From assembly GCF_003334305.1 (NCBI RefSeq), contig NZ_QOWS01000011.1: a DNA stretch of 64,000 nucleotides. One strand, 5' to 3'. This DNA comes from Escherichia coli (GTDB lineage: Bacteria; Pseudomonadota; Gammaproteobacteria; Enterobacterales; Enterobacteriaceae). The position numbers and the translations under genes are program-made. This document shows, piece after piece, positions 821 to 3,304 of this stretch. The notes under the pieces are model-generated. The model worked only from the letters and a program-made list of their open reading frames with translations. It was not told the origin of the DNA and searched no databases. Position 1 is the first letter of the stretch, and each line of letters begins with the position of its first letter.

Positions 821-3304
821 TCACACCGAACGCGATTCAGGAGGAACTGTTTGGTAAATAGCACCACCGGATCTTGGGGACGCTGTGATTATTACAGTAT
901 TGCTATCACCGTCATTTTTGAATGTCACTTTACCAGTAGCATCAACGCCTACCCAGGAGGCCGAGCTTGAAAACGAATAATCAGCCGCCGTTTTTCCTGG
1001 TGCAAAGTTGTCATTATTCAACTGATAATACGCCCCGGTAAATCCCTGCGAAGGGAATGAAGCTGTCGGTAGGTTTGCACCATTCACTGACACTGTACCG
1101 GTCATTGGTCTGGTTTCCGCGCTAATGAATTCTATCGTGGTACTCAGGCCCGCCTGATGAACACCATTCAATACGGGGATCAGCGTTGCGATACCCTCTC
1201 CGTCTCCTGTAACAGTAGCTTTGTAATCACCGTTGATATTTTGACTGTAATCAATTGCGCTAATTTTCATATAGGGCACGTTTGTACCTGATTGCACAAA
1301 TTCCATCCCTTCAGAAACTTTGATCGGATTGCCTGATATATCGTGCAGAACAAGATGTAGCTCAGCACTATCGGTAAAGTCCCCTTTCAGTGATGACTGG
1401 TTGTTCTTAAGGATGGACTGCGAGGCGTCTGCTGGGACTGCCACTAGCGATATATCTACTGTTTGCATTCCACCTGCGCTTGTGACTGTGCTTACAGTGA
1501 CGCTCCCCGTTATCGCTCCTTTCACGCTTGTTGTCGCGATTCCGTTTTGATCGGTCACTGCTGTTAATGACGTTAATGTGGTGGAGCCGCTTTTTAAGGC
1601 GAAGTACACAGTGAGACCTTCGATCAGGTTACCACTGCCATCCTCAACCGTTGCCTTTAAGGTACTTAAATCACTGTTGGTGGCGGCGATAGTCGACGGA
1701 TCAGCGATAAAGCTAGCAACATGTGCGGTGCTTGGGTTGCCAGTAACCTTCACGGTTGTCTGTGTCTGTATTGTGACGCCGTTATGGAACGATGCAGTCA
1801 CCGTATATGTACCGACTTTATTGCTGGTCAGAACGACTGGAGCCTGACCTGAAGAGTTGGTTCTCACTTTTCCGCCACTTAACGTCGCACCTTCTAGCGT
1901 TACGCTAAAGTTGATGACCTGACCCTCCACTGGAGTGCCATTTGCAGAGGTTAGCGTTGCCGTCAGAGTAGCGCCTTTAGGAGCATTGACACCGATAAGC
2001 GGACTGGACGTGAGTGTCAGTTTTTCATCAATAGCCTCCAGTTGTTTCTCAAGTGAAGCTCCATTCGCTAGGGATGCTTTTACAGTATACGAGCCGTTTC
2101 TTTCAGGCGTCATGGTGACCTCGGCTACTCCCTGCGTATTAGTAGAGACCGTATTCTGGCTGATGATCATTTGCGAGGATGGCGCTGCACTGAATGTCGC
2201 GGGTTGATGCGTCACCGGGTTGCCAAACTGGTCGTTAACGTGAGCTTTAACTGCTATGTCTTGTGCGACCATGACCTGACCTTCAGGTATCTCCTGACTG
2301 GTAATCGTCGCAGAATTAACATCTACCTTGGCATTCAGTAATCGCGAGATGACTTCAGTAGGTTTATCTGCCAGAGAGGCTGAAACTGTTTTTAGTCCGA
2401 CCTCGGTGCTTGTCACAAGAATTTCAGCGAAAACCTGATCATCCGTTTCAACGCTGGTGCTGCTTAGCGTGACGGAGGTTCCACGGAAATTAACTTTTAT
2501 ACCTTCTACTGGGTTGCCGTTTCCATCAGTCACTGTTGCCTGTAGCCTGGTCATTCCAATGTTATTGGCGATGAAATTGTCCTCGGTAACGTTAAGATTA
2601 ACCTGCGCAGTGAGCGTATCCGCAGTAAAGTTCACCACCAACTGCTCACTCTTACCGCCAACCATCGATGCTGTCACGGTATGAGCGCCTGCTTTTGTAC
2701 CTTTCAGCGTGACTTTCGCTTTGCCATCGGCATCAGTAACCGCTTTGTCGCCATCGCTCAGCGTGAAGTTCGCCTTCACATCTTCCGGTAGAGTAAATGT
2801 TACCTCAGTGTTGGCTATCGCATTGCCCTCTGTATCAGCGACGGTGCTGTTAGTGTCGTGAGATCGTTATTGTCGGCAATCACCGGATCCTTCGAGGCTG
2901 CCAGCGTGATTTCAGCATTCGTGACGTTCGGCACATAGTTCACTGTTTGTTGCATCGAATCGCCATTTTCGAGGGTTGCCGTCACGGGAGTTCTTCAGGC
3001 TGAAATCTTCATCCACGCCCAGCGTGATTCTTGCGGTACCGAAGCGGCTTAACCAGTCTGTCATTACCCCTGAAGCCTGAGAAGAGGCCCATCCACGTGC
3101 TATGTTTGCCGCTTGCTCGCTGTTCATATCTTCGGCGAGCAGAGATCCAATTAGCTGTGAAGTACTGGCTATCTGTTGCTCAAGGTTGCCACTGCTGTTA
3201 CCCGGCGGCGGGGTTAAATTTTTTTCACTAACTTGTGCCTGGACATCCAGTTCATCACCCGGGCGGACATTACGAACAAACGTACGAAACTGGTTGAGTT
3301 TGCG
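821..3304 (-). pseudogene. yeeJ: Decayed yeeJ (inverse-autotransporter adhesin with Big_1 Ig-like repeats): N-proximal fragment joined out of frame to distal Ig repeats, plus a -1 frameshift
   Basis: Minus-strand ORF 821..2779 (652 aa) is tandem Ig-like repeat sequence (...GTKAGAHTVTASM...). Upstream codons continue only in another frame (VNYVPNVTNAEITLAASKDPVIADNNDLTTLTA then frameshift near 2845). An N-proximal segment (RKLNQFRTF...ITLGVDEDFSLKNS) is joined out of frame near 2987. The remnant (~2.5 kb) is far shorter than an intact >2000-aa adhesin. Confidence 0.7.

Follow-up and report, generated by a model that had tools for sequence, protein, structure and literature searches.

A yeeJ remnant with five lesions beside the common-type yersiniabactin island of Escherichia coli

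YeeJ of the K-12 and UMN026 types is a type Ve inverse autotransporter adhesin, encoded between asnT and yeeL/shiA; the gene order in K-12 is serU, mtfA, asnT, yeeJ, yeeL, shiA. The final 103 residues of the protein have been assigned to a C-type lectin domain (Martinez-Gil et al. 2017, PMC5595812), and the same study placed yeeJ directly downstream of asnT and proposed that insertion of the island there may account for many truncated yeeJ genes. The common-type yersiniabactin island (HPI) is found at asnT, has no right-hand direct repeat and has its right arm cut shortly after fyuA (Schubert et al. 2009, PMC2606025). Both the asnT insertion and the deletion at the fyuA border are characteristic of this common E. 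coli island, nearly all copies of which descend from one ancestor and have spread together with flanking DNA through conjugative transfer and homologous recombination (PMC2606025). The ICE-type islands (ECOR31-type ICEEc1, the ICE of E. coli ACN002 at asnV, and L004/L005, which share the arrangement of ACN002) continue beyond fyuA into an AlpA-family gene, DUF2857, TraR, a VirB-type type IV secretion system, MobC and cargo. In the ACN002 element (2,133,000-2,178,000) the far end bears defence-like cargo: a restriction endonuclease, an ABC-three-component system, and a reverse transcriptase with an effector of the retron Eco8 family.

The window analysed here is a stretch of 64,000 nucleotides from E. 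coli contig NZ_QOWS01000011.1, read on one strand. No difference separates its island from the common type, the block and flanks of which are conserved in a large fraction of E. coli. In comparison to the ICE-type islands, the identity is 98.6-99.7% through fyuA and the next ~940 bp, and everything listed above as lying beyond has been deleted from the window. The adjoining adhesin gene occupies the same locus as K-12/UMN026-type yeeJ, with 92-95% nucleotide identity over the segments that are kept and the same Big_1 and Invasin_D3/D4 passenger repeats; unlike those alleles, it is without signal peptide, native start, full beta-barrel, lectin domain or a single reading frame. The region is, very probably, a non-functional remnant of yeeJ that has become fixed beside the common-type island. 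That this is a pseudogene is already known, being annotated in RefSeq (where the remnant is labelled 'frameshifted; incomplete') and outlined by Martinez-Gil 2017 and Schubert 2009. Only the base-level coordinates are added here, with five lesions in place of two and the border deletion placed between codon 118 of an ICE open reading frame (ORF) and yeeJ nt 219. The layout of the locus is as follows.

34759..34834, minus strand: asnT tRNA-Asn, the left attachment border of the island, with serU adjoining
6333..4312, minus strand: fyuA
3309..4311, minus strand: AT-rich kilobase, the remnant of the island right arm 3' of fyuA, 98.6-99.7% identical to ICE-type islands
3308..849, minus strand: yeeJ-derived DNA
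1-693, plus strand: 3' part of a yeeL-like family 9 glycosyltransferase gene, convergent on the yeeJ remnant

In the window serU stands beside asnT, as in K-12, and from this position and the K-12 gene order it follows that the HPI occupies the asnT site and that its right-hand neighbour is yeeJ. Of 5,426 complete E. coli genomes, 2,229 carry the segment 3309..4311, with fyuA adjoining in every match listed or inspected. The yeeL-like glycosyltransferase (family 9) beside the remnant is annotated in this haplotype as an intact CDS of 350 aa (WP_000480488.1); yeeL is a pseudogene in K-12 and has an internal stop in strain 167. In strain Z1323CEC0013 an IS5-family element lies 44 bp 3' of fyuA, and the yeeJ remnant is missing in full, as is the end of the glycosyltransferase gene. 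The 44 bp conserved after fyuA were considered as the boundary of the island core, and this was rejected in favour of a secondary, IS5-associated deletion of the haplotype.

Across window positions 6400-3302 the sequence follows the ICE-type island L005 at 98.6-99.7% identity. The ICE copies in L005 and ACN002 hold an extra 209-bp AT-rich segment 3' of fyuA that is absent at window ~4027-4015 (the short form); in L005 this segment spans 5427-5634 and is flanked by imperfect 14-bp direct repeats (AAAAAAAACAACCC / AAAAAAAACCACCC). Directly after fyuA in the ICE-type islands is an ORF of 179 aa in L004/L005; the ACN002 version has 308 aa. The genes beyond the 179-aa ORF include, besides those of the AlpA family, DUF2857, TraR and the VirB-type secretion system, Hha and a lytic transglycosylase. 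A three-way alignment of ICE, window and K-12 defined the point at which this ORF passes into yeeJ, referred to as junction A.

3307..3309, minus strand: junction A, with ICE/island DNA to 3309 and yeeJ nt 219 onward from 3307
3661..3311, minus strand: remnant of the ORF after fyuA in ICE-type islands, comprising its ribosome-binding site and first 117 codons
2912..3661, minus strand: chimeric 249-aa ORF, made of 117 aa of the ICE ORF, YeeJ aa 74-184 and 23 out-of-frame residues before a stop

The microhomology at junction A is a single shared G at 3308. Nucleotides 1-218 of K-12 yeeJ are missing and codons 1-117 of the ICE ORF stand in their place, with the loss of the promoter, start codon, signal peptide and half of the LysM domain. 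No second copy of the asnT 3' 16-mer was found in the 64 kb window, the sole copy being within asnT itself (34759..34834). Together with the ICE/yeeJ alignment at junction A, this shows a single illegitimate border deletion. On 1 nt of microhomology, it runs from codon 118 of the ICE ORF through the conjugation/excision module and attR to yeeJ nt 218, and it took away in one step the mobility module of the ICE together with attR, the region between asnT and yeeJ, and yeeJ nt 1-218. The damage to the 5' end of yeeJ is a deletion across the right end of the island, rather than the result of site-specific island insertion. The earlier note on this DNA had spoken of collateral damage from either HPI insertion or border deletion; for the 5' lesion the second stands and the first falls away.

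The frame is kept across junction A by chance, and the resulting 249-aa product is annotated in RefSeq as an intact CDS named 'inverse autotransporter beta domain-containing protein' (WP_000039788.1). Residues 1-117 have matches at 97-98% identity that include a partial protein from Yersinia pestis and the 179-aa protein. In a search of NCBIfam and Pfam only the YeeJ-derived part of the chimera was matched and nothing was returned for the ICE-derived residues 1-117; the Pfam match is to IAT_beta (PF11924), over positions 3-64 of the 279-position model only. The strong AAGGAG ribosome-binding site of the ICE ORF is retained. Just 3' of the chimeric ATG is a poly-A run at 3657, in which one additional A destroys the start of the ORF in three of six sampled genomes. 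The poly-A runs at 4027 and 3657 both differ in length among genomes. That the fusion is expressed from the ICE ribosome-binding site and has gained some function in island-positive E. coli, as a de novo fusion gene, is scarcely credible. We suggest that WP_000039788.1 and its relatives be annotated as artefactual chimeric ORFs and not as real adhesins.

The remainder of yeeJ was compared by blastn, blastp and base-level displays with K-12 MG1655 yeeJ (7,020 bp) and the intact long allele of strain 167 (8,001 bp). Against K-12, blastn returned four collinear blocks.

Window 3308-2986: K-12 yeeJ nt 219-550
Window 2984-2511: K-12 yeeJ nt 4244-4718, with one gap
Window 2540-864: K-12 yeeJ nt 5001-6677
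Window 844-1: the yeeL side

About one third of yeeJ is left, with five lesions relative to the intact alleles. The surviving DNA amounts to ~2.46 kb, out of 7.0 kb in K-12 and 8.0 kb in the long allele, falls into three reading frames and has two premature stops. The residues that can still be recognised by blastp are 74-184, 1415-1461, 1463-1573 and ~1667-2229 of 2,339. The fragments and the lesions between them are listed here.

2986..3308, minus strand: yeeJ fragment 1, K-12 nt 219-550 and aa 74-184, at 92.5% identity in blastn
2985..2986, minus strand: junction B, an internal deletion; window 2986 is K-12 nt 550 (aa 184) and 2985 is nt 4243 (aa 1415)
2845..2985, minus strand: yeeJ fragment 2a, aa 1415-1461, in a frame that differs from that of fragment 1
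2843..2844, minus strand: frameshift site, at which AACAG of intact alleles has become ACCG, a net loss of one base
849..2842, minus strand: yeeJ fragment 2b, aa 1463-1573 and ~1667-2229, from blastn and Pfam
2511..2540, minus strand: junction C, a 30-bp repeat at which one 312-bp (104-aa) Ig repeat has been lost in frame
848..849, minus strand: junction D, a 3' deletion of 763 bp relative to strain 167 and ~450 bp relative to K-12
821..848, minus strand: formerly intergenic DNA that now encodes ...VPPESRSV and a stop (823..821)

Fragment 1 comprises the C-terminal half of LysM, a linker and the first beta-barrel strands, and contains a 9-bp in-frame indel. It ends with ...GVDEDFSLKNS at window 2986, and the distal side begins at aa 1415 with ...TATLENGDSMQQ. 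The earlier note had described this N-proximal sequence as joined out of frame to distal Ig sequence, and this is confirmed at 2986|2985: relative to K-12 the deletion measures 3,692 bp and relative to the long allele 4,598 bp, and since either length divided by three leaves a remainder of 2, the distal Ig sequence is out of frame. The break is clean, with no microhomology and no filler base, and removes the rest of the beta-barrel and most of the Ig domains. An apparent 'extra G' at 2985 was considered as filler DNA and rejected, as it matches strain 167 and is an allele divergence seen only against K-12.

At the frameshift the intact alleles read ACAGCAACAGTCGCT and the window reads ACAGCACCGTCGCT, with one base gone and another substituted at 2844-2843; after TLTA the translation continues as PSLIQRAMR until it meets a stop. 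The loss of one base reported earlier near 2845 is thus located, although the site is no homopolymer as had been supposed. We considered whether the frameshift compensates for junction B, since 3,692 + 1 = 3,693 bp is a multiple of three, and rejected this as coincidence. The 652-codon ORF does share its frame with the N-terminal fragment. However, the 140-nt stretch between the two lesions contains a TGA in the N-terminal frame (2914-2912), also found in the K-12 sequence, so that the frame is not restored.

Beyond the frameshift, Pfam analysis of the translated segment 824..2842 identified five Big_1 domains together with Invasin_D3 and Invasin_D4, and no C-type lectin domain. The Big_1 passenger domains are therefore kept, yet in a frame with no start codon or signal peptide. 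The homology to YeeJ ends at ~aa 2229 of 2339. At junction D the allele of strain 167, with ...SGGAIYQTQVRVKGWW..., runs on into the lectin domain; the window matches it as far as ...SGGAIYQT and then jumps. The deletion has no microhomology and takes away the last ~110 codons (the C-type lectin domain) along with the stop codon and some of the intergenic DNA. The 652-aa ORF at 821..2779 ends in ...SGGAIYQTVPPESRSV, of which the last 8 codons and the stop come from DNA that lies downstream of yeeJ in intact genomes. What had been suspected to be another frame change at the end of this ORF is instead the 3' deletion junction 849|848 that removes the lectin domain. The 19 unmatched bases at 845-863 were also considered as filler and rejected: the strain 167 allele matches them, and they reflect allele divergence.

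The alignments with K-12 yeeJ (b1978) and another strain that the earlier note had proposed, run here against K-12 and strain 167, thus display both the internal deletion and the frameshift, and add the 312-bp repeat loss (2540-2511) and the precise 5' fusion 3309|3308 to what it had described. Its principal claim, that yeeJ is a decayed pseudogene with damage tied to the HPI border, is upheld by the alignments, by junction A and by a census of genomes, in which probes over each lesion were searched against 5,426 complete E. coli genomes. The counts are totals for each probe.

Junction A, 61-mer: 2,071 genomes
Junction B, 61-mer: 2,057 genomes
Frameshift allele, exact over 61 bp: at least 1,884 genomes
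Junction C, joined form: 2,054 genomes
Junction D probe: 2,067 genomes
Whole 3.6 kb at 80% coverage or more: 2,037 genomes

The other matches to the frameshift probe comprise both intact-type alleles and alleles that differ from the frameshift allele by a single base, and for the junction C probe the other genomes listed cover only ~70%. The genomes that bear the junctions come from many hosts and serotypes. A negligible chance is left that the frameshift and junctions are artefacts of sequencing or assembly in a repetitive adhesin gene. Martinez-Gil et al. (PMC5595812) raised the possibility of artefacts for some yeeJ frameshifts; the gene is repetitive, and a similar one, upaH, is a documented case of misassembly (PMC5595812). 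However, at least 1,884 complete genomes that were sequenced independently share the identical frameshift allele and ~2,050-2,070 share the junctions, population counts by which sequencing error is excluded. The frameshift, moreover, lies outside any homopolymer, and the sequence at junctions A, B and D is unique.

The four structural junctions occur with near-equal counts in ~38% of complete genomes, consistent with one haplotype. Two synthetic probes were also searched. One combined the island side of junction A with an intact beta-barrel and the other the native asnT-yeeJ 5' end with junction B; neither reached 80% coverage in any of the 5,426 genomes. Junctions A and B, the pair tested directly, are never apart. 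The other four lesions (internal deletion, frameshift, repeat loss and 3' deletion) are events separate from the border deletion that travel with the island as one haplotype.

These data bear on whether yeeJ was already a pseudogene in the first recipient of the island, such that the border deletion only trimmed a dead gene. We consider this unlikely, though it has points in its favour: the junctions themselves leave the order of events unfixed, disrupted yeeJ is also frequent in island-negative strains (15 of 96 genomes; PMC5595812), and a frameshifted yeeJ allele of the O157 type has been seen. Against it are the absence of the native asnT-yeeJ 5' end with junction B from all 5,426 genomes and the agreement of the junction B, C and D counts with that of junction A, which together mean that an earlier dead allele would have left no island-free descendants. 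No intermediate that would set the order of the lesions was found among the tested genomes. In the sequence of events that we favour, the border deletion would have come first, immobilising the island and killing yeeJ, and the four other lesions would then have gathered neutrally in the founder lineage. The whole block would later have spread through E. coli with the selected siderophore island, hitch-hiking by homologous recombination of the flanks (Schubert 2009, PMC2606025).

The copies of the remnant in six further genomes were aligned with that of the window. Private damage to the Ig-frame remnant is found in four of the six, and the lesions are as follows.

973: 1-bp deletion
1991: 26-bp deletion
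1519 and 1312: nonsense mutations

The decay thus appears to proceed independently by lineage. Over the seven aligned copies pN/pS is ~0.48 rather than 1, a relaxed value from an underpowered set of 37 variant codons, in which some of the variation may be older than the inactivation or stem from recombination.

The same alignments bear on the possibility that a functional short variant or new gene is present, with the 249-aa chimera or the 652-aa Ig-repeat protein expressed and under selection. Such a gene could draw on the ribosome-binding site and the intact RefSeq CDS of the chimera, on the 652-codon ORF that is open in this window and on the pN/pS value. It is nonetheless highly improbable. 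The chimera has no signal peptide, keeps 62 of the 279 positions of the beta-barrel model, has no family match for its first 117 residues and loses its start to the extra A at 3657 in half of the sampled genomes. The Ig ORF has only a GTG start and is interrupted by a frameshift, the 26-bp deletion or nonsense in four of the six, and the allele owes its high frequency to linkage with the selected yersiniabactin island (PMC2606025). The earlier note had held that reference alleles of the same length and frame structure would mark a natural short variant. About 2,050 genomes do share the structure, but these are copies of one dead allele. That the shared allele is dead follows from the lack of signal peptide, beta-barrel and lectin domain, from its three reading frames and from the new stops and indels that it is accruing.

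The non-functional remnant accounts for the lack of the YeeJ biofilm adhesin in most island-positive E. coli, which are largely extraintestinal pathogenic, and serves as a handy base-level marker of the single-origin haplotype of the common yersiniabactin island. Around junction D (810-890), 69 genomes are at least 99% identical to the window and ~2,000 differ by one base or more. The window strain represents a minority sub-haplotype and is 100% identical to FDAARGOS_497 over the 3.6 kb.
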